Translations under genes and position numbers: made by a program
The notes under the pieces: generated by a model
What the model saw: the letters and a program-made list of their open reading frames with translations, nothing else
What the model was told of the DNA's origin: nothing
Databases searched by the model: none
Source: Escherichia coli
Lineage (GTDB): Bacteria; Pseudomonadota; Gammaproteobacteria; Enterobacterales; Enterobacteriaceae
NCBI RefSeq assembly: GCF_003790525.1
Contig: NZ_CP033635.1
Length of the DNA stretch: 64,000 nucleotides
Direction: 5' to 3' (one strand)
Part shown: piece after piece, positions 1 through 10,188 of the stretch
Layout: the number at the start of each line of letters is the position of its first letter
Position numbering within the stretch: position 1 is the first letter of the stretch

Positions 1-583
1 GATAATCAGGAATGTGGTTAGAGAACAACGTCGCCAGTCCTTCAATATCATTACGCCAGTCACGGTGCAGCTCGCAAGCCACGCCGAACCATGTCATCAA
101 TTGCGCACCTGCTTGCGACATGCGATCCCATGCCGAATGCCGGGTAATTTCATTAAAGGTCCCTGAGGCGTCAGTCACGACAAAGACGTCAAACCCTTCT
201 TCAATGGCTGAAAGCGCCGGGAATGCCACGCAAACTTCAGTTACCACACCGGCAATAATTAACTGTTTTTTACCTGTCGCTTTGACTGCTTTTACAAAAT
301 CTTCGTTATCCCAGGCGTTAATATTTCCCGGGCGAGCAATGTAAGGTGCATCGGGGAATTGTGCTTTCAGTTCTGGAACTAATGGACCGTTAGGACCGGT
401 TTCAAAACTGGTGGTAAGAATAGTTGGTAAGTTAAAATACTTAGCCAGGTCACCCAGCGCCAGCACGTTATTTTTAAACTTATCGGGTTCGATATCCCGT
501 ACAAGGGAAAGTAAACCAGCCTGGTGATCAACAAGCAAAACGGCAGCATCATTTTTATCAAGACGAACATACGGTTTGGTCAT
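1..583 (-). CDS. ycaC: Isochorismatase-family hydrolase YcaC, C-terminal end cut by window edge
   Basis: Reverse-strand frame from ATG at 583-581 reads MTKPYVRLDKNDAAVLLVDHQAGLL... without a stop to position 2; the stop lies outside the window. Track ORF 12..344 (+) is its antisense shadow. Confidence 0.9.
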   Translation of the reverse strand, partial: MTKPYVRLDKNDAAVLLVDHQAGLLSLVRDIEPDKFKNNVLALGDLAKYFNLPTILTTSFETGPNGPLVPELKAQFPDAPYIARPGNINAWDNEDFVKAVKATGKKQLIIAGVVTEVCVAFPALSAIEEGFDVFVVTDASGTFNEITRHSAWDRMSQAGAQLMTWFGVACELHRDWRNDIEGLATLFSNHIPDY

Positions 584-897
584 CCTCTTCTCCTTTCGAG
601 AGTCAGTGGTACGTCTGAAATCGGTCAGACGCGATGCATTGCTCTGAAAGCATAGACGGGAAATATGAGTTTGCTGTGACCATGAAATTTTTCGACTGAA
701 CGAAGCGTATGAAATTTGTGTTAGATCAATAAAAACAATCAGATGAGATTAATCGTCTCTCCAGCATTAGCGTTATGAATGAGTAATATAAATCGATAAT
801 ACCTCAGCTGCGATATGCGCGTATTTTCACCCATTGACAATGTTTTTGGCGGTGGCATGATGCGCATGAAATTTGAACTTCCTCACGGTTTTAATTC

Positions 898-2046
898 ATG
901 TCCACGTATACCCGGCCTGTCATGCTTTTGCTGTCTGGCCTGCTTTTGTTGACTCTGGCGATTGCGGTGTTAAATACACTCGTGCCGCTTTGGCTCGCCC
1001 AGGAACACATGTCCACATGGCAGGTAGGCGTTGTCAGCTCATCCTATTTTACCGGCAACCTGGTCGGTACATTGCTGACAGGGTATGTCATTAAGCGCAT
1101 TGGCTTTAACCGCAGCTATTATCTGGCCTCCTTCATTTTTGCCGCTGGCTGTGCCGGCCTTGGCCTGATGATTGGATTCTGGAGCTGGTTGGCTTGGCGT
1201 TTTGTCGCCGGCGTCGGCTGTGCCATGATTTGGGTGGTTGTTGAGAGCGCGCTGATGTGCAGTGGGACGTCACGTAACCGTGGGCGTTTGCTTGCTGCGT
1301 ATATGATGGTTTATTACGTGGGAACGTTTTTAGGCCAGTTACTGGTCAGCAAAGTTTCAACCGAGCTGATGTCCGTATTGCCGTGGGTTACAGGTTTGAC
1401 GTTGGCAGGGATCTTACCGCTGTTGTTTACGCGTGTGCTGAATCAGCAGGCTGAAAACCATGATTCGACGTCAATTACGTCAATGCTAAAACTCCGTCAG
1501 GCGCGGCTTGGCGTGAATGGCTGCATTATCTCAGGAATCGTTCTGGGATCTCTATATGGCCTGATGCCGCTGTACCTCAATCACAAAGGGGTGAGCAATG
1601 CCAGCATTGGTTTCTGGATGGCGGTACTGGTCAGTGCGGGTATCCTTGGACAATGGCCGATTGGACGTCTGGCGGATAAGTTTGGTCGACTGCTGGTGTT
1701 GCGTGTTCAGGTCTTTGTCGTCATTCTCGGCAGTATCGCGATGCTTAGCCAGGCGGCGATGGCCCCAGCGTTATTCATCCTCGGTGCCGCTGGCTTTACG
1801 CTATATCCGGTGGCGATGGCATGGGCTTGCGAGAAAGTTGAACATCATCAACTGGTGGCGATGAACCAGGCCTTACTGTTGAGCTATACCGTGGGAAGTC
1901 TGCTTGGCCCGTCATTTACTGCCATGCTAATGCAGAATTTCTCCGATAATTTATTGTTTATCATGATCGCCAGCGTATCGTTTATCTATTTGCTGATGCT
2001 GCTTCGCAACGCCGGTCATACGCCGAAACCCGTTGCTCACGTGTAA
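898..2046 (+). CDS. ycaD: MFS transporter YcaD
   Basis: Track ORF 898..2046, 382 aa, hydrophobic multi-TM protein recognised as YcaD; followed by an intrinsic terminator. Confidence 0.93.
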
Positions 2047-2057
2047 ATGAATTAACG

Positions 2058-2094
2058 CAGAGTGTGAACTTACTGTTTCACACTCTGTTTTTTT
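2058..2094 (+). terminator. ycaD intrinsic terminator
   Basis: CAGAGTGTGAA-CTTACTG-TTCACACTCTG (11-bp perfect stem) followed by TTTTTTT, 12 bp after the ycaD stop. Confidence 0.75.
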
Positions 2095-2255
2095 GTTTCT
2101 TCTATCTGACTTGCTTTTTTCAAAATTTTATTCGTTTCAAAATAAAATGTGCAGCAGGTTATAATTTTGCATTTCGCTATTTCCGCACTTCTTATTTGCC
2201 GCGCATAATCCCTCGTTTTACAGATGCCCCTTTACTTTTGGCGAAGGATTTGTCT

Positions 2256-3686
2256 ATGGCTGGGAATGTTCAGGAAAAACAGCTGCGATGGTACAACATT
2301 GCGCTGATGTCTTTTATCACTGTCTGGGGTTTTGGCAACGTTGTTAATAACTACGCCAACCAGGGGCTGGTGGTTGTTTTTTCATGGGTGTTTATCTTTG
2401 CGCTCTATTTCACACCTTATGCGCTAATTGTTGGTCAGTTAGGCTCGACCTTCAAAGATGGGAAGGGCGGGGTCAGTACCTGGATTAAACACACGATGGG
2501 ACCCGGACTGGCTTACCTCGCCGCGTGGACCTACTGGGTAGTGCATATTCCCTATCTGGCACAAAAACCCCAGGCAATACTGATTGCGCTCGGTTGGGCG
2601 ATGAAAGGCGACGGTTCGTTAATCAAAGAATATTCAGTCGTAGCGTTACAGGGGTTAACGCTGGTGCTGTTTATCTTCTTTATGTGGGTTGCTTCACGCG
2701 GTATGAAATCGCTGAAAATCGTCGGTTCTGTGGCAGGGATTGCGATGTTTGTTATGTCGCTCCTGTATGTGGCGATGGCGGTAACCGCGCCTGCGATTAC
2801 TGAAGTGCATATTGCGACCACAAACATTACCTGGGAAACGTTCATTCCTCATATCGACTTTACCTACATCACCACTATTTCAATGCTGGTTTTCGCGGTT
2901 GGCGGAGCAGAGAAGATTTCTCCTTACGTTAATCAAACGCGCAACCCAGGAAAAGAATTTCCAAAAGGGATGTTATGCCTGGCGGTGATGGTTGCGGTTT
3001 GTGCCATTCTGGGCTCGCTGGCGATGGGGATGATGTTTGATTCGCGTAATATCCCGGATGACTTAATGACTAACGGTCAGTATTACGCCTTTCAGAAACT
3101 GGGCGAGTATTACAACATGGGTAATACTTTAATGGTGATTTACGCCATTGCGAATACCCTGGGACAAGTAGCTGCGCTGGTATTCTCGATTGATGCGCCG
3201 CTTAAAGTACTATTAGGCGATGCTGATAGCAAATATATTCCAGCCAGTTTATGTCGTACCAACGCTTCTGGTACGCCCGTTAATGGCTATTTTCTGACCC
3301 TGGTGCTGGTGGCGATCCTGATTATGCTGCCGACGCTGGGTATCGGCGATATGAATAATCTCTACAAGTGGTTGCTGAATCTTAACTCGGTGGTGATGCC
3401 ACTACGTTATCTGTGGGTATTTGTTGCATTTATTGCAGTCGTTCGTCTGGCGCAGAAATATAAACCAGAGTATGTCTTTATTCGTAACAGGCCGCTGGCG
3501 ATGACTGTCGGGATCTGGTGTTTTACCTTTACCGCTTTTGCCTGCCTGACAGGGATCTTCCCGAAAATGGAAGCCTTCACTGCAGAGTGGACCTTCCAGT
3601 TAGCGCTGAATGTTGCAACGCCGTTTGTCCTGGTTGGACTGGGGCTGATATTCCCGCTGCTGGCGCGTAAAGCGAATAGTAAATAA
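2256..3686 (+). CDS. ycaM: APC-family amino acid transporter YcaM
   Basis: Track ORF 2064..3686; start placed at internal ATG 2256 (MAGNVQEKQLRWYNIALMSF...) giving 476 aa; the upstream extension is low-complexity leader. Confidence 0.88.
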   Translation: MAGNVQEKQLRWYNIALMSFITVWGFGNVVNNYANQGLVVVFSWVFIFALYFTPYALIVGQLGSTFKDGKGGVSTWIKHTMGPGLAYLAAWTYWVVHIPYLAQKPQAILIALGWAMKGDGSLIKEYSVVALQGLTLVLFIFFMWVASRGMKSLKIVGSVAGIAMFVMSLLYVAMAVTAPAITEVHIATTNITWETFIPHIDFTYITTISMLVFAVGGAEKISPYVNQTRNPGKEFPKGMLCLAVMVAVCAILGSLAMGMMFDSRNIPDDLMTNGQYYAFQKLGEYYNMGNTLMVIYAIANTLGQVAALVFSIDAPLKVLLGDADSKYIPASLCRTNASGTPVNGYFLTLVLVAILIMLPTLGIGDMNNLYKWLLNLNSVVMPLRYLWVFVAFIAVVRLAQKYKPEYVFIRNRPLAMTVGIWCFTFTAFACLTGIFPKMEAFTAEWTFQLALNVATPFVLVGLGLIFPLLARKANSK

Positions 3687-3853
3687 TTATTGTGGTCGGT
3701 GACGCTGACTCTGGCAGATCTGACCCGTTTTTACATAATCGAGAAATGCGCGCAAGCCGCAGGACATATACTGGCGGTTTGGGTAATACATTTGGAAGCT
3801 GTGCTGTAAGGGCGCTAGAAATAGAGCCCTGAATTATTTATGCAGCACGGAAT

Positions 3854-3886
3854 AAAAAAGCGGCAACTCAATAAAGTTGCCGCTTT
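3854..3886. terminator. Bidirectional terminator between convergent ycaM and pflA
   Basis: GCGGCAACT-CAATAA-AGTTGCCGC flanked by AAAAAA and TTT; gives hairpin plus U6 on the pflA strand. Confidence 0.65.
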
Positions 3887-3895
3887 ACGGGGAAA

Positions 3896-4636
3896 TTAGA
3901 ACATTACCTTATGACCGTACTGCTCAAGAATGCTTTTCACGCGTTCCATGGTCTCTTTCTTCGGTGGTTTAACACCATCAAGTTTGTATTCTTCACCCAT
4001 CGCCACCCATTTGTGTTTGCCCAGCTCGTGGTAGGGGAGAAGCTCGATTTTCTCAACGTTGCCCATATCACGGGTAAATTCACCGAGGCGATGCGCTGAA
4101 TCGTCATCGTCAGACCAGCCAGGGACAACAACGTAGCGGATCCACACCTTAACATCTTTGTTCGCCAGATATTTAGCGAACTCCAGTGTACGGTGGTTAG
4201 ATACGCCAACCAGATTCTGGTGAATTTCGTCGTTCATCTGTTTGAGATCGAGCATTACCAGGTCGGTTACTTCCAGCAGTTCATCAATCACCGGATCGTA
4301 ACGACGAACAAAACCGTTGGTATCCAGACAGGTATGAATGCCTTCTTTTTTGCAGGCGCGGAACCAGTCACGAACAAACTCAGCTTGCAGGATTGCTTCA
4401 CCGCCGGATGCGGTAACGCCGCCGCCGGAAGCGTTCATAAAGTGGCGATAGGTCACCACTTCCTTCATCAAATCTTCAACGGTAACTTCTTTACCGCCAT
4501 GCGTGTCCCAGGTGTCGCGGTTATGACAATACAGGCAGCGCATCAGGCAGCCCTGGAAAAAGGTGATAAAGCGAATACCCGGGCCGTCTACGGTTCCACA
4601 GGATTCAAAGGAGTGAATGCGACCAATAACTGACAT
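3896..4636 (-). CDS. pflA: Pyruvate formate-lyase activating enzyme (radical SAM)
   Basis: Track ORF 3896..4663; start trimmed to [20 protein letters not shown] (246 aa); radical-SAM CxxxCxxC motif [10 protein letters not shown]. Confidence 0.95.
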
Positions 4637-4761
4637 TGCGGTGTTTCTCCAGATGTGGCCCATCTGAGGCCGTGTTGGTGCGCAGCTCGAAGGCTACGTC
4701 GAGTCTGTTTTGGCAGTCACCTTAAAGTATAGATAGCTGACAAAAAAGGCTCTCGTGCTAA

Positions 4762-4790
4762 AAAAGGCCCCACTTTCGTGGAGCCTTTAT
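4762..4790 (-). terminator. pflB intrinsic terminator
   Basis: On the reverse strand GGCUCCAC-GAAA-GUGGGGCC followed by UUUUU, about 40 bp after the pflB stop. Confidence 0.6.
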
Positions 4791-4827
4791 TGTACGCTTT
4801 TTACTGTACGATTTCAGTCAAATCTAA

Positions 4828-7110
4828 TTACATAGATTGAGTGAAGGTACGAGTAATAACGTCCTGCTGCTGTTCTTTAGTCAGCGAGTTGAAACGTACT
4901 GCGTAGCCAGATACACGGATGGTCAGCTGCGGATATTTTTCCGGGTTTTCCATCGCGTCGAGCAGCATTTCACGGTTCATCACGTTAACGTTCAGGTGCT
5001 GACCACCTTCGATGGACGCTTCGTGGTGGAAGTAACCATCCATCAGACCAGCCAGGTTGGTCTTACGAACTTCGTCGTCTTTACCCAGTGCGTTCGGAAC
5101 GATAGAGAAGGTGTAGGAGATACCATCTTTAGCGTAAGCAAACGGCAGTTTAGCAACGGAAGTCAGAGAGGCTACTGCACCTTTCTGGTCACGACCGTGC
5201 ATCGGGTTAGCACCCGGCCCGAACGGCGCGCCAGCACGACGACCGTCTGGGGTGTTACCAGTTTTCTTACCATACACAACGTTAGAAGTGATGGTCAGAA
5301 CAGACTGAGTCGGGATAGCGTCACGGTAGGTGTGCAGTTTCTGAATTTTCTTCATGAAACGTTCTACCAGGTCAACAGCCAGGTCATCTACACGCGGATC
5401 GTTGTTACCAAACTGCGGGTATTCGCCTTCGATTTCGAAGTCGATAGCCAGACCGTCTTCGTCACGAATCGGTTTAACTTTCGCATATTTGATTGCAGAC
5501 AGGGAGTCAGCAGCAACGGACAGACCAGCGATACCACACGCCATGGTGCGGATAACGTCACGGTCGTGCAGCGCCATCAGAGAGGCTTCGTAGCTGTACT
5601 TGTCGTGCATGTAGTGGATGATGTTCAGTGCAGTGATGTACTGTTTAGCCAGCCAGTCCATGAAGTGATCCATGCGCTCCATCACTTCATCGTAGTTCAG
5701 GAGATCGCCTTTGATCGGTTCAGACTTCGGACCAACCTGCATTTTCAGTTTTTCGTCAACGCCGCCGTTGATTGCGTACAGCATGGTTTTCGCCAGGTTT
5801 GCACGCGCACCGAAGAACTGCATTTGTTTACCAACGATCATCGGGCTTACGCAGCAAGCGATAGCGTAGTCATCGTTGTTGAAGTCCGGACGCATCAGGT
5901 CATCGTTCTCATACTGCAGAGAAGAGGTGTCGATGGACACTTTAGCAGCGAATTTCTTGAAGTTCAGCGGCAGTTTTTCGGACCACAGAATGGTCATGTT
6001 CGGTTCCGGAGACGGACCCATGGTGTACAGGGTGTTCAGGAAACGGAAGCTGTTTTTGGTAACCAGGGTACGACCGTCGAGGCCCATACCACCGATAGAT
6101 TCGGTTGCCCAGATTGGGTCGCCAGAGAACAGTTCATCGTATTCCGGAGTACGCAGGAAGCGAACCATACGCAGTTTCATGACCAGGTGGTCAACCATTT
6201 CCTGCGCTTCTTGTTCGGTGATCTTGCCAGCTTTCAGGTCACGTTCGATGTACACATCCAGGAAGGTGGAGGTACGACCGAAGGACATTGCAGCACCGTT
6301 CTGAGACTTAACAGCAGCCAGGTAGCCGAAGTAAGTCCACTGGATAGCTTCCTGAGCGTTGGTAGCCGGACCAGAGATGTCGTAGCCGTATTTCGCAGCC
6401 ATTTCTTTCATCTGACCCAGAGCGCGGTGCTGTTCAGCGATTTCTTCGCGCAGACGGATAGTCTGTTCCAGGTTTACGCCGTTTTCCAGATCAGCCTGCA
6501 GAGAGGTGAACTGAGCGTATTTGTCTTTCATCAGGTAGTCGATACCGTACAGCGCAACGCGACGGTAGTCACCGATGATACGACCACGGCCATAAGCATC
6601 TGGCAGACCGGTCAGAACACCGGATTTACGGCAACGCAGGATGTCCGGAGTGTAAACGTCGAACACGCCCTGGTTGTGAGTTTTACGGTATTCAGTGAAG
6701 ATTTTTTTGATCATCGGGTCCAGTTCGCGGTTGTACGCTTTGCAGGAACCTTCGATCATTTTGATACCACCGAACGGGATAAGAGCACGTTTCAGCGGAG
6801 CTTCAGTCTGCAGACCAACAACTTTTTCCAACGCTTTGTTGATGTAGCCAGCGTCGTGAGAGGTGATGGTGGAAGCAACAGCGGTGTCAAAGTCAACTGG
6901 CGCGTGAGTGCGGTTTTCCAGTTTAACGCCTTCCATTACTTTGTCCCACAGGGTGGTGGTCGCTTCAGTAGCGCCAGCCAGGAAGGACTCGTCACCCTCG
7001 TACGGAGTGTAGTTTTTCTGAATGAAGTCACGGACGTTTACTTCATTCTGCCAGTCACCTTTGGTAAAACCTTCCCAGGCTGTGGCTAACTTTTCATTAA
7101 GCTCGGACAT
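4828..7110 (-). CDS. pflB: Pyruvate formate-lyase (glycyl radical enzyme)
   Basis: 760-aa [18 protein letters not shown]...; glycyl-radical motif RVSGYAV near the C-terminus; strong codon bias leaves a 750-aa antisense open frame. Confidence 0.97.
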
Positions 7111-7164
7111 GTAACACCTACCTTCTTAAGTGGATTTTTTATTTACTGCGTACTTCGACAACCA

Positions 7165-8022
7165 TTAATGGTGATCGTTTTCACGCAGGTAAATGACCCA
7201 GTATGTCAACCCAACCAACAAACCACCGCCGATAATATTACCGATCGTAACCGGAATCAGGTTATCAGTGATGAAGTTCATCACGGTCAGGTGAGAAAAA
7301 TTTTCCGGTGCAGAACCGACAGCGGTCCAGAATTCCGGAGATGCGAAGTCGCGGATTACAATACCCATCGGGATCATAAACATGTTTGCGATACTGTGCT
7401 CAAAACCGCTGGCAACAAACATCGCGACCGGCAGCACCATAATGAACGCTTTATCCATCAGGCTGCGGCCAGAATAACTCATCCATACTGCCAGACATAC
7501 CATCAGGTTTGCCAGGATACCAAGGCAGACGGCCTCAATAAAAGTATGGTGCACTTTGTGGTCGGCGGTTTGTAGGACGTTTAGTCCCCATTGACCATTC
7601 GCGGTCATATACTCGCCGGAAAGCCACATTAAAAGTACAAACAGCAGTGCGCCGACCAGGTTGCCAAAATAGACATTTAGCCAGTTTTTCGCCAACTGAC
7701 CCCAGGTGATGCGCCCACTCGCCTTAGCAACAACAATCAACACTGTGGAAGTAAAGAGATCGGCTCCGCAGACAACACAAAGAATCAGCCCCAGAGAGAA
7801 GCAAATGCCGCCAACCAGTTTTGCCATGCCGAAGGGCATTGTTCCTGTGCCAGTGGTTGCTGTGATATAGAAGACGAATGCGATTGAGATGAAAACACCG
7901 GCGGTAATCGCCAGATAGAAAGTCTTAAGCGGATGTTTCGTTGCTTTATAGACACCTGCCTCTTCGGCCACTTTGGCCATTGCTGCAGGAAGTAAAAGAT
8001 CAAAAGGGTTGTCAGCTTTCAC
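7165..8022 (-). CDS. focA: Formate channel FocA (FNT family), GTG start
   Basis: Track ORF 7165..8361 stays open upstream; the recognised FocA N-terminus (V)KADNPFDLLLPAAMAKV begins at a GTG (revcomp of 8020-8022); 285 aa. Confidence 0.88.
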   Translation of the reverse strand: MKADNPFDLLLPAAMAKVAEEAGVYKATKHPLKTFYLAITAGVFISIAFVFYITATTGTGTMPFGMAKLVGGICFSLGLILCVVCGADLFTSTVLIVVAKASGRITWGQLAKNWLNVYFGNLVGALLFVLLMWLSGEYMTANGQWGLNVLQTADHKVHHTFIEAVCLGILANLMVCLAVWMSYSGRSLMDKAFIMVLPVAMFVASGFEHSIANMFMIPMGIVIRDFASPEFWTAVGSAPENFSHLTVMNFITDNLIPVTIGNIIGGGLLVGLTYWVIYLRENDHH

Positions 8023-8392
8023 ACTAACTCTCTCTTTATTAAGTCGGCGACGAGATACTAACAAAGCATTATAGATGAGAAATTGATATAGATCATATCT
8101 CGCCTGGCTTATAGGCCCGTAACTCGCATGGTTTTTATGCAAATACGGAGTAAATATTTGATTATCCAAATAAAAATAAATTTTAAAAATTAACAAATGA
8201 GTTGAATTTTTTCCGCATCCTCCGCTAAAACAGTTAATTAAAAGGGAGCACCAGGCGAATAAAGTAACAATATCGATCGTATTTATTAAATACAAATTAC
8301 CGATACTTAACTTTATAATTACAATTATTTTATTAATGCAAATATATGTAAAGCGGGGCATTAAAAAAACGCCCCGTAATATAACTCAGATG
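8023..8392 (-). promoter_or_regulatory. AT-rich multi-promoter control region upstream of focA-pflB
   Basis: 370-bp very AT-rich non-coding tract between focA and ycaO; position corresponds to the known FNR/ArcA/IHF-controlled pfl promoter region. Individual sites other than the FNR box were not resolved. Confidence 0.5.
8083..8096 (-). promoter_or_regulatory. FNR-box-like palindrome in the pfl/focA promoter region
   Basis: TTGATATAGATCAT matches the FNR consensus TTGAT-N4-ATCAA at 9 of 10 positions, about 60-75 bp upstream of the focA GTG; the pfl operon is a classical FNR target. Confidence 0.55.
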
Positions 8393-8427
8393 AATCAAAT
8401 AGCCTACATTGCGTAGGCTATTTGATT
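8393..8427. repeat. 15-bp perfect inverted repeat abutting the ycaO stop codon (putative terminator)
   Basis: AATCAAATAGCCTAC-ATTGC-GTAGGCTATTTGATT; perfect 15-bp arms with a 5-nt loop, immediately 3-prime of ycaO on the reverse strand. Confidence 0.5.
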
Positions 8428-10188
8428 TTATTTTGCCCAGAATGCCGCTTTGGCGCGCTGCAGCTTTTCGTAGGCTTTCAGCAACGATTGATGTGCAGCA
8501 AACGCGTGCAGATCGCTATCTACTGGTTGCAAGCCATAAAACGCCGCTTCGCCGCTCATTGCCGCACTGGCGGCTTCCACGGCGTCTGCGCCATACATAC
8601 GAACGAAGGCATTCAGATATTGCAGCGGTTGGCGGTCTTCTTCCTGTGCCAGTAATAACAACGTTTGCAGACAGCGATAATAGTTGGCGCGTTCCGGACT
8701 GAACACTGATGAGTTAAATTCCATCGTCCATTCAGTCCAGACCAGAGCCTGTTCCAGATCGCCACCAGCCAGCGCCAGCATGGCTTTTAATTCACCGATA
8801 CGCAGGGTGTACCAACCGTTATCCGGTCCGGTCGCCAGACCCAGTAGTTCACGTACGCGAGTAAAGTCATCAAAACCTTCTTCATCCAGTTGCTCGATGA
8901 GGTTCAGGTAATCTTCTTTTTCCCACACACTGCCTGGTAGCGAGAGAATGGTTTCACGTAAATGGCTACCCATACTGTTATTCGCTAACCACAGATCTTC
9001 AGCCGGATAAATATCGGACATGCCAGGCACGATAATACGGCAAGCATAAACGCCCAGATGCTCGTAATCGGCAATATAAACTTCTTTATCTTCTTTGTTG
9101 AAGATAGCCATCAGCGTAGCAAACTCTTCTTCCGTAGTGCCGGAGAAATTCCAGTCCACAAACGGATAATCGGCATCCTGCTTGAACAGGTCCCAGGAGA
9201 TTAAACCGCTGGAATCGATAAAGTGCGTTTCGAGGTTGGTATGTTCAGCAACTTCTTCATCATCGAAGGTTGGCGGAGTAAACACATCCAAATCTTTCAG
9301 GCCACGACCTTGCAGCAGCTCGGTCACGGTACGTTCCAGTGCTACGCCAAAATCAGGATGCGCACCGAAAGAGGCAAAGCAGGTGCCGTTAGCAGGATTA
9401 AACAGAACCACGCAAATCACCGGATACTGGCCGCCAAGCGAACCATCATAAGCAAAGATTGGGAAACCTTCTGCTTCCAGTGTTTCGATCGCTTCAACCA
9501 CCGCTGGGTAACGCGCCAGCACGTCTGCCGGGATTTCCGGCAAGCTGATGCTTTCAGCAATAATGCGGTTTTTCACGTAGCGTTCGAAAACTTCGGACAA
9601 TCCCTGAACGCGTGCTTCGTTACGGGTATTGCCAGCAGACATACCGTTAGAAACGTACAAGTTACCAATGATATTCATCGGAATATAAATGGTCTGGTTG
9701 TCGGACTGGCGCGTAAACGGTAGACCACAAATACCACGATCTTCGTTACCGGATTGCAGGTCAATCAGCATACTACCGGTCAGTTCATTCTCCGGATCGT
9801 AAAATGCGCGCAGACGGTCATCGAGCAGCCCTTCTGGTACATCGTCATTTTCGGTCAGTGGGAACCATTTTTCGTTGGGATAATGCACGAATGGGCCGTT
9901 GGCGATGGTTTCGCCCAGCCAGAAGTCCGCAAAAAAGTAGTTGGTTGAGAGACGCTCGAAATATTCACCGAGTGCAGAAGCCAGCGCCGCTTTTTTGGTT
10001 GCGCCTTTACCGTTGGTAAAACACAGTGCGCACTCTTTGTCGCGAATATGTACAGACCAGACGTTAGGCACGGGATTCAGCCAGGAGGCCTCTTCAATCT
10101 GAAAGCCGAGGTCTGAAAGTTTTTGCTGGAAGCGAGCGATGGAATCTTCCAGTGCGGCATCTTTGCCGGGGATAAATGTTTGCGTCAT
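8428..10188 (-). CDS. ycaO: YcaO-domain protein (with RimO, ribosomal protein S12 beta-methylthiolation)
   Basis: Track ORF 8428..10221; start trimmed to MTQTFIPGKDAALEDSIARF (586 aa), recognised as E. coli YcaO. Confidence 0.92.
   Translation of the reverse strand: MTQTFIPGKDAALEDSIARFQQKLSDLGFQIEEASWLNPVPNVWSVHIRDKECALCFTNGKGATKKAALASALGEYFERLSTNYFFADFWLGETIANGPFVHYPNEKWFPLTENDDVPEGLLDDRLRAFYDPENELTGSMLIDLQSGNEDRGICGLPFTRQSDNQTIYIPMNIIGNLYVSNGMSAGNTRNEARVQGLSEVFERYVKNRIIAESISLPEIPADVLARYPAVVEAIETLEAEGFPIFAYDGSLGGQYPVICVVLFNPANGTCFASFGAHPDFGVALERTVTELLQGRGLKDLDVFTPPTFDDEEVAEHTNLETHFIDSSGLISWDLFKQDADYPFVDWNFSGTTEEEFATLMAIFNKEDKEVYIADYEHLGVYACRIIVPGMSDIYPAEDLWLANNSMGSHLRETILSLPGSVWEKEDYLNLIEQLDEEGFDDFTRVRELLGLATGPDNGWYTLRIGELKAMLALAGGDLEQALVWTEWTMEFNSSVFSPERANYYRCLQTLLLLAQEEDRQPLQYLNAFVRMYGADAVEAASAAMSGEAAFYGLQPVDSDLHAFAAHQSLLKAYEKLQRAKAAFWAK

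Follow-up and report, generated by a model that had tools for sequence, protein, structure and literature searches.

In Escherichia coli K-12 MG1655, the genes ycaM (b0899), ycaN (b0900), ycaK (b0901) and pflA (b0902) occur in this order, with ycaN on the minus strand, ycaK on the plus strand, and 1,680 bp between the stop codons of ycaM and pflA. ycaN encodes a LysR-type regulator, and ycaK a flavodoxin-like NAD(P)H oxidoreductase. Deletion of ycaN in K-12 is reported to alter the expression of ycaC, ycaD and focA and to lead to a negative formate-utilisation phenotype (PMC9068703). In our search of the literature on ycaN, ycaK, b0900 and b0901, we came across functional studies of YcaN, and nothing on a presence/absence polymorphism. 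The loss of ycaN-ycaK represents ordinary accessory-gene turnover, and the remnant described below already has a RefSeq pseudogene entry.

We analysed a stretch of 64,000 nucleotides (the window), in which ycaM and pflA lie much closer together. Over window positions 3300-4300, the sequence matches that of E. coli SMS-3-5 (NC_010498.1) with 100% identity. A spacer of 209 bp (3687-3895) separates the end of the ycaM stop codon (3686) from the pflA stop codon, which is on the minus strand and begins at 3896. An original prediction, made from the letters of the window, gave these same positions, which agree with the raw sequence and the open reading frame (ORF) list, and it gave the K-12 gene order correctly; ycaM is not directly beside pflA in K-12. 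The prediction also held that ycaN and ycaK are absent from the window and proposed that the spacer be inspected for a deletion scar. Both genes are indeed missing, and a scar is present, consisting of a 3' stub of ycaN and a relic of the end of ycaK (Table 1). The spacer is very probably what remains after a deletion of ~1.5 kb.

Table 1. Features at the ycaM-pflA junction, in window coordinates
Feature	Position	Strand	Description and basis
ycaM	2256..3686	+	APC-family permease, intact, left of scar; RefSeq CDS WP_000918513.1
ycaN 3' remnant	3687..3797	-	last 36 codons plus stop; RefSeq pseudogene ECSMS35_RS28260, "incomplete; missing N-terminus"
Deletion junction	3799..3800		boundary of blastn blocks; same junction in O55:H7 and E. 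albertii
ycaK stop-region relic and ycaK-pflA intergenic spacer	3800..3839		40 bp; alignments with other Escherichia
pflA intrinsic terminator hairpin	3857..3886	-	12-13 bp stem, then UUUUUUAUU on the pflA strand; terminator scan
pflA	3896..4636	-	pyruvate formate-lyase 1 activating enzyme, intact, right of scar; RefSeq CDS WP_000111039.1

The mechanical ORF list contains no ORF of at least 80 amino acids within the spacer. For ycaM, it gives a longer frame (2064-3686; 540 amino acids) with a GTG start at 2064, which is 64 codons upstream of the RefSeq ATG at 2256 (476 amino acids). The RefSeq start is favoured because, in every fetched locus, similarity to YcaM sets in at query residue 1-6, at or near the annotated start. 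The same list contains a 750-amino acid ORF with a TTG start (window 4837-7089, plus strand) that lies antisense to nearly all of pflB; there is no evidence beyond the mechanical listing that it is a gene.

Comparison with K-12 delimits the missing segment. Using blastn, window positions 1-3799 align to positions 976-4773 of the K-12 locus (L005), and window positions 3840-6556 align to 6285-9001, such that 40 bp in SMS-3-5 take the place of K-12 chromosome positions 948,773-950,283 (1,511 bp). SMS-3-5 lacks 798 bp from the 5' side of ycaN, the promoter region of ycaN-ycaK and, as K-12-alignable sequence, ycaK except for approximately its last 10 bp. The position of the breakpoint is uncertain by ~10 bp; the hexamer TGTGCT recurs 10 bp further into ycaN.

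On the left side of the junction, the ycaN remnant adjoins the ycaM stop codon exactly as in K-12. Its translation, FQMYYPNRQYMSCGLRAFLDYVKTGQICQSQRHRPQ followed by the stop, is identical to the K-12 YcaN C-terminus in 36 of 37 residues. Homology to K-12 DNA extends through window position 3799, and positions 3687-3799 are 97% identical to the ycaN 3' ends of K-12 and O121, with no indels. Only 36 of the 302 ycaN codons are kept; the N-terminal 266 codons, including the helix-turn-helix (HTH) DNA-binding domain, are gone, and the frame upstream of the remnant reaches a stop after 12 further codons. By these sequence features, positions 3687-3797 are a truncated pseudogene, a deletion remnant of ycaN: the homology lies in the orthologous position and orientation, and the start codon, promoter and HTH domain have been lost. 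RefSeq annotates the ycaN remnant of O55:H7 DEC5D as a pseudogene in the same way ("LysR family transcriptional regulator, missing N-terminus").

The 40 bp on the right side have no significant blastn match within the K-12 locus. Among E. coli, this sequence occurs once in each of 1,023 genomes and nowhere else in those genomes. We considered that it might be foreign "filler" DNA, given its lack of a K-12 match and its restriction to genomes with the scar, but alignment with other Escherichia led us to reject this possibility. The last ~10 bp of ycaK read TGCACTATAA in K-12 and SCPM-O-B-8794 versus TGTGCTGTAA in SMS-3-5. Judging from these alignments, positions 3800-3839 are a diverged ycaK end together with the fast-evolving ycaK-pflA spacer, and belong to an allele class that is common to E. 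albertii and not to K-12-type E. coli.

In SMS-3-5, positions 3799-3850, which include the ycaK relic, can fold into a hairpin with a predicted energy of -24.4 kcal/mol (z -4.8). Three substitutions relative to O55:H7 fall in this stem-loop, and all of them preserve pairing through G-U pairs. The consensus fold of five Escherichia sequences reaches only -2.3 kcal/mol, with many pairs broken, and none of E. albertii, SCPM-O-B-8794 and E1V33 keeps the stem-loop. The best hits of the spacer to Rfam covariance models had E-values of 0.46 and 0.88 and fell well short of the gathering scores. A functional RNA or a second terminator in the spacer was therefore rejected, as the 3799-3850 fold is not conserved and there is no Rfam match.

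The remaining element of the spacer is the hairpin downstream of pflA. On the minus strand its predicted folding energy is -20.3 kcal/mol, compared with -19 kcal/mol for the plus strand (z about -6 to -7), and it is kept in all Escherichia compared, including K-12, where it lies between ycaK and pflA. The original prediction described the spacer as holding only a shared bidirectional terminator and no ORF. The hairpin exists, and the lack of an ORF stands at the 80-amino acid threshold, but the spacer also contains the 111-bp ycaN remnant and the 40-bp relic. Moreover, the bidirectional reading is only half supported. A stable GC-rich hairpin does lie between the two stop codons; a U-rich tract is not present on both strands, since the ycaM (plus) strand has only UUU after the stem, followed by ACGGGG. 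Because of this short tract, and because the terminator scan calls the element on the minus strand only, the hairpin is at most a putative terminator of ycaM transcripts.

The deletion that we propose would have taken out 88% of ycaN, from the 5' side, together with the divergent promoter region and nearly the whole of ycaK. It would have left behind a dead 111-bp ycaN 3' stub, ~40 bp from the ycaK stop and the spacer that follows it, and the hairpin of the pflA terminator. We find no insertion sequence (IS) or integrase in or next to the K-12 ycaN-ycaK segment, no tRNA within it, no direct repeats spanning the breakpoints in K-12, and no repeat-derived or foreign sequence in the scar. The locus thus shows the hallmarks of neither a mobile genomic island nor IS-mediated excision. 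Since an IS, an integrase and flanking direct repeats are all lacking, the deletion is best read as illegitimate, involving microhomology barely or not at all, and as neither IS-mediated nor a product of site-specific recombination. The left breakpoint lies inside a 13-nt inverted repeat within K-12 ycaN. The two breakpoint contexts (GATCTGGAAG versus GATATGGTAG) are weakly similar, with 7-8 of 10 positions matching; in view of this weak similarity and of the absence of spanning direct repeats, deletion between repeats was rejected. By inference, SMS-3-5 would be without YcaN-dependent regulation and YcaK activity.

To place the scar within the species, we determined the state of this locus in 5,426 complete E. 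coli genomes, a collection that does not include the phylogroup D reference UMN026 (NC_011751.1). Three haplotypes come close to partitioning the collection, together accounting for ~5,387-5,410 of its genomes. Haplotype A (ycaM-ycaN-ycaK-pflA) includes K-12, O121 and IAI39, and occurs in 3,318 genomes at a coverage of at least 80%, or 3,341 when any match is counted. Haplotype B (ycaM-scar-pflA) is the SMS-3-5 form; it is present in 1,022-1,023 genomes, including those of O55:H7, O157:H7 and O145, and corresponds to ~19% of complete E. coli genomes, a count that is inflated by the many O157:H7 genomes in the collection. In haplotype C (1,047 genomes, among them the type strain ATCC 11775, ATCC 25922 and ZJ3920), ycaM is also absent and the ycaD terminator is fused to the pflA terminator, with ~3-4 bp between the two (window 2047-3853 compared with 5940-6060 of locus L004).

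Consequently, ycaN-ycaK are absent from ~39% of complete E. coli genomes, in two main forms. These counts bear out the original prediction in that the two genes show a presence/absence polymorphism while the region around them is colinear. Its choice of K-12 as the expected state holds insofar as K-12 has both genes, but is weakened by the size of the fraction that lacks them. Other, independent rearrangements at this locus were also observed. CUPS04 carries an IS1-mediated deletion that extends from the middle of ycaM to near the end of ycaK (L052 2175-3567), EC96 has IS1 copies inside ycaN, and in GF43 bcsB/bcsC genes and an IS3 directly abut pflA (L006 1-5866).

We used a chimeric query, composed of SMS-3-5 mukB and K-12 ycaN-ycaK, to look for copies elsewhere on the chromosome. 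It matched one place on the SMS-3-5 chromosome, through mukB only, compared with two places in each of IAI39 and CE10. Because mukB alone was matched, ycaN-ycaK are absent from the SMS-3-5 chromosome and not relocated on it.

IAI39, which like SMS-3-5 presumably belongs to phylogroup F, has intact ycaN-ycaK, although its mukB gene, 28 kb away, is 99.9% identical to that of SMS-3-5. SMS-3-5 and IAI39 differ chiefly at window positions 3251-3750 and 4090-4340, which flank the indel. This mosaic implies that alleles in this region are exchanged by homologous recombination and do not strictly track phylogroup. Two patches of SMS-3-5, comprising the 3' 390 bp of ycaM (3300-3690) and a segment of pflA (4160-4260), are 9-10% diverged from every Escherichia compared, and ~32 genomes carry the whole 1-kb SMS-3-5 allele at 99% identity or more. 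The patches are probably a recombination mosaic derived from an unsampled donor; for the ycaM 3' patch, no donor closer than 91% was found among the sampled Escherichia, Citrobacter and Salmonella loci.

A scan for YcaM in GTDB species representatives yielded 41 loci, which were mapped using tblastn with six K-12 proteins. Four other Escherichia have both ycaM and pflA in the fetched locus. All four have the arrangement ycaM, ycaN stub, pflA, and none is intact. SMS-3-5 shares both its junction and its right-hand 40-bp allele class with the E. albertii type strain NBRC 107761. In SCPM-O-B-8794 and E1V33, the junction is shifted by ~9 bp on the left side and ~5 bp on the right side. In MOD1-EC7003, the ycaN stub is longer by ~45 bp and the join lies at the ycaK stop; this junction cannot have arisen from that of haplotype B. 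The stubs of E. albertii and E1V33 contain frame-breaking indels, as expected of decay.

Outside Escherichia, the order ycaD-ycaM-pflA is conserved in Citrobacter, Salmonella enterica subsp. arizonae/diarizonae, Kluyvera, Yokenella and Pluralibacter, and the ycaM-pflA spacers of these sister genera contain no trace of ycaN or ycaK homology. YcaM in sister genera is 90-94% identical, while the nearest full-length relatives of YcaK outside Escherichia (for example, in Pseudocitrobacter and Hafnia) are 60-72% identical. GC3 is 0.44 for ycaN and 0.41 for ycaK, versus 0.58-0.61 for pflA and ycaD. Based on the absence of the genes from sister genera, the low YcaK identity and the low GC3, the Escherichia lineage most likely gained ycaN-ycaK by insertion into an ancestral convergent ycaM-pflA spacer, and repeated losses followed.

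Other sequences also occupy this position. The spacer of C. werkmanii contains a 5.8-kb ORF cluster and a 264-amino acid ORF (L012 7427-12965), and that of C. portucalensis contains a similar 264-amino acid ORF alone (L017 7477-8271). In "E. coli E69", ORFs of 782 and 446 amino acids lie downstream of ycaM, with no pflA within 6 kb (L024 8532-12224). The ycaM-pflA spacer looks like a recurrent insertion spot. Two further observations concern YcaM itself. A YcaM fragment that is 98% identical to E. coli occurs on a 396-bp contig of Corallococcus aberystwythensis (NODE_614, L047; coverage 0.67), which is most likely E. coli contamination. YcaM homologues with 62-66% identity are found in Clostridium, Pelosinus, Anaerospora and Sporomusaceae (L036-L042). 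For a permease found in both Firmicutes and Enterobacteriaceae this identity is unusually high, and an ancient horizontal transfer may account for it.

The acquisition of ycaN-ycaK at some point, indicated by sister genera in which ycaM is beside pflA, by the low GC3 and by the lack of close homologues, raises the question of whether SMS-3-5 simply retains the ancestral empty site, with K-12-type strains having gained the genes and nothing having been deleted. We regard this explanation as highly improbable. The in-frame stretch of 36 ycaN codons and the ycaK stop region refute it for SMS-3-5; no such homology is seen in Citrobacter, Kluyvera and Salmonella, where the site is truly empty. That the junction is an assembly artefact, or that the genes were relocated, merits hardly any credence. 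SMS-3-5 is a finished genome, the junction recurs in more than 1,000 complete assemblies, the chimeric query finds one place on the chromosome, and the three haplotypes form a near-exact partition. A collapsed assembly, which the original prediction had named as an outcome that would overturn its claim, is contradicted by the same contiguous junction in 1,022 independent complete genomes. A recent deletion private to the SMS-3-5 lineage, from a modern K-12-type haplotype like that of IAI39, fits with the intact locus of this close relative and with a stub that matches K-12-type ycaN without indels. It is nonetheless very unlikely, as the identical junction and relic occur throughout haplotype B, including O157:H7 and O55:H7, and also in E. 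albertii; base-level comparison of the SMS-3-5 and O157:H7 junctions revealed no difference. Also, the relic is strongly unlike the sequence downstream of ycaK in K-12 and IAI39, and the mosaic tract that surrounds the indel suggests that homologous recombination replaced the allele, rather than that a new deletion took place.

The deletion is not private to SMS-3-5 and forms a fixed haplotype, whose two sides give different indications of age. The right-hand region of SMS-3-5 is ~87% identical to that of E. albertii over 98 bp, compared with 85-93% for flanking genes. The right-hand 40 bp cluster with their E. albertii counterpart and cannot be simply aligned to intact E. coli haplotypes, which suggests an old allele, with identity by descent resting on one E. 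albertii genome. The left stub, so similar to E. coli ycaN, suggests instead a young event, homogenisation by recombination up to the junction, or independent recurrence. We searched for an intact haplotype with a downstream spacer like that of haplotype B, but three contigs with divergent YcaK all proved to be K-12-type (frameshift, insertion, noisy reads). Independent occurrence of the same deletion in E. coli and E. albertii, at a mutational hotspot, is unlikely but deserves real consideration. The genus contains at least three junction types as well as IS1-mediated losses, the left breakpoint has its 13-nt inverted repeat and the GATCTGGAAG/GATATGGTAG contexts their weak similarity, and the stub in E. 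coli resembles the ycaN of that species far more than it does the stub in E. albertii. Conversely, haplotype B E. coli and E. albertii share not only the position of the junction but also derived indels and substitutions in the 40 bp rightward of it, and these derived features are absent from all intact E. coli haplotypes. A more speculative scenario, which we consider rather doubtful, is an old trans-species polymorphism. Here, a deletion allele predating the split of E. coli and E. albertii would have been shuffled among phylogroups by recombination, and perhaps maintained by selection through YcaN control of focA-pflB, ycaC and ycaD, with the spacer acting as a recurrent site of cargo exchange across Enterobacteriaceae. 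The SMS-3-5 scar is one widespread, probably old loss allele.

These findings have implications for the use of K-12 as a reference. At this locus, the gene order of K-12 does not stand for the species as a whole, and regulatory-network models based on K-12 should not be carried over to it in SMS-3-5 or O157:H7, which lack the YcaN regulator. The locus could also serve as a three-state marker (ycaMNK, ycaM-scar, none) in studies of recombination. Its states do not strictly follow phylogroup, as SMS-3-5 and IAI39 differ.

The scar shares features with each of the other arrangements. Relative to the K-12 locus, SMS-3-5 has the same flanking genes, orientation and pflA hairpin, and the last 111 bp of ycaN at 97% identity, but the sequence just downstream of the ycaK stop represents a different allele class. 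The junction and scar of O157:H7 and O55:H7 are identical to those of SMS-3-5, with three substitutions within 3680-3900 (221 bp, ~99%). What sets SMS-3-5 apart from these strains is its patches of 9-10% divergence within pflA and the neighbouring 3' end of ycaM. The B2-type ycaD-pflA junction (ATCC 11775, ATCC 25922, ZJ3920) likewise lacks ycaN and ycaK and has the same pflA terminator, but differs in that ycaM is lost too and no remnant persists. With ycaN-ycaK gone, ycaM in SMS-3-5 would converge directly on pflA, as in sister genera. The ycaM-pflA pair of those genera resembles that of SMS-3-5 in being convergent, with a short spacer and one hairpin. However, their spacers are shorter (~45-200 bp, mostly ~45-100), have hairpins of unrelated sequence and carry no relics.
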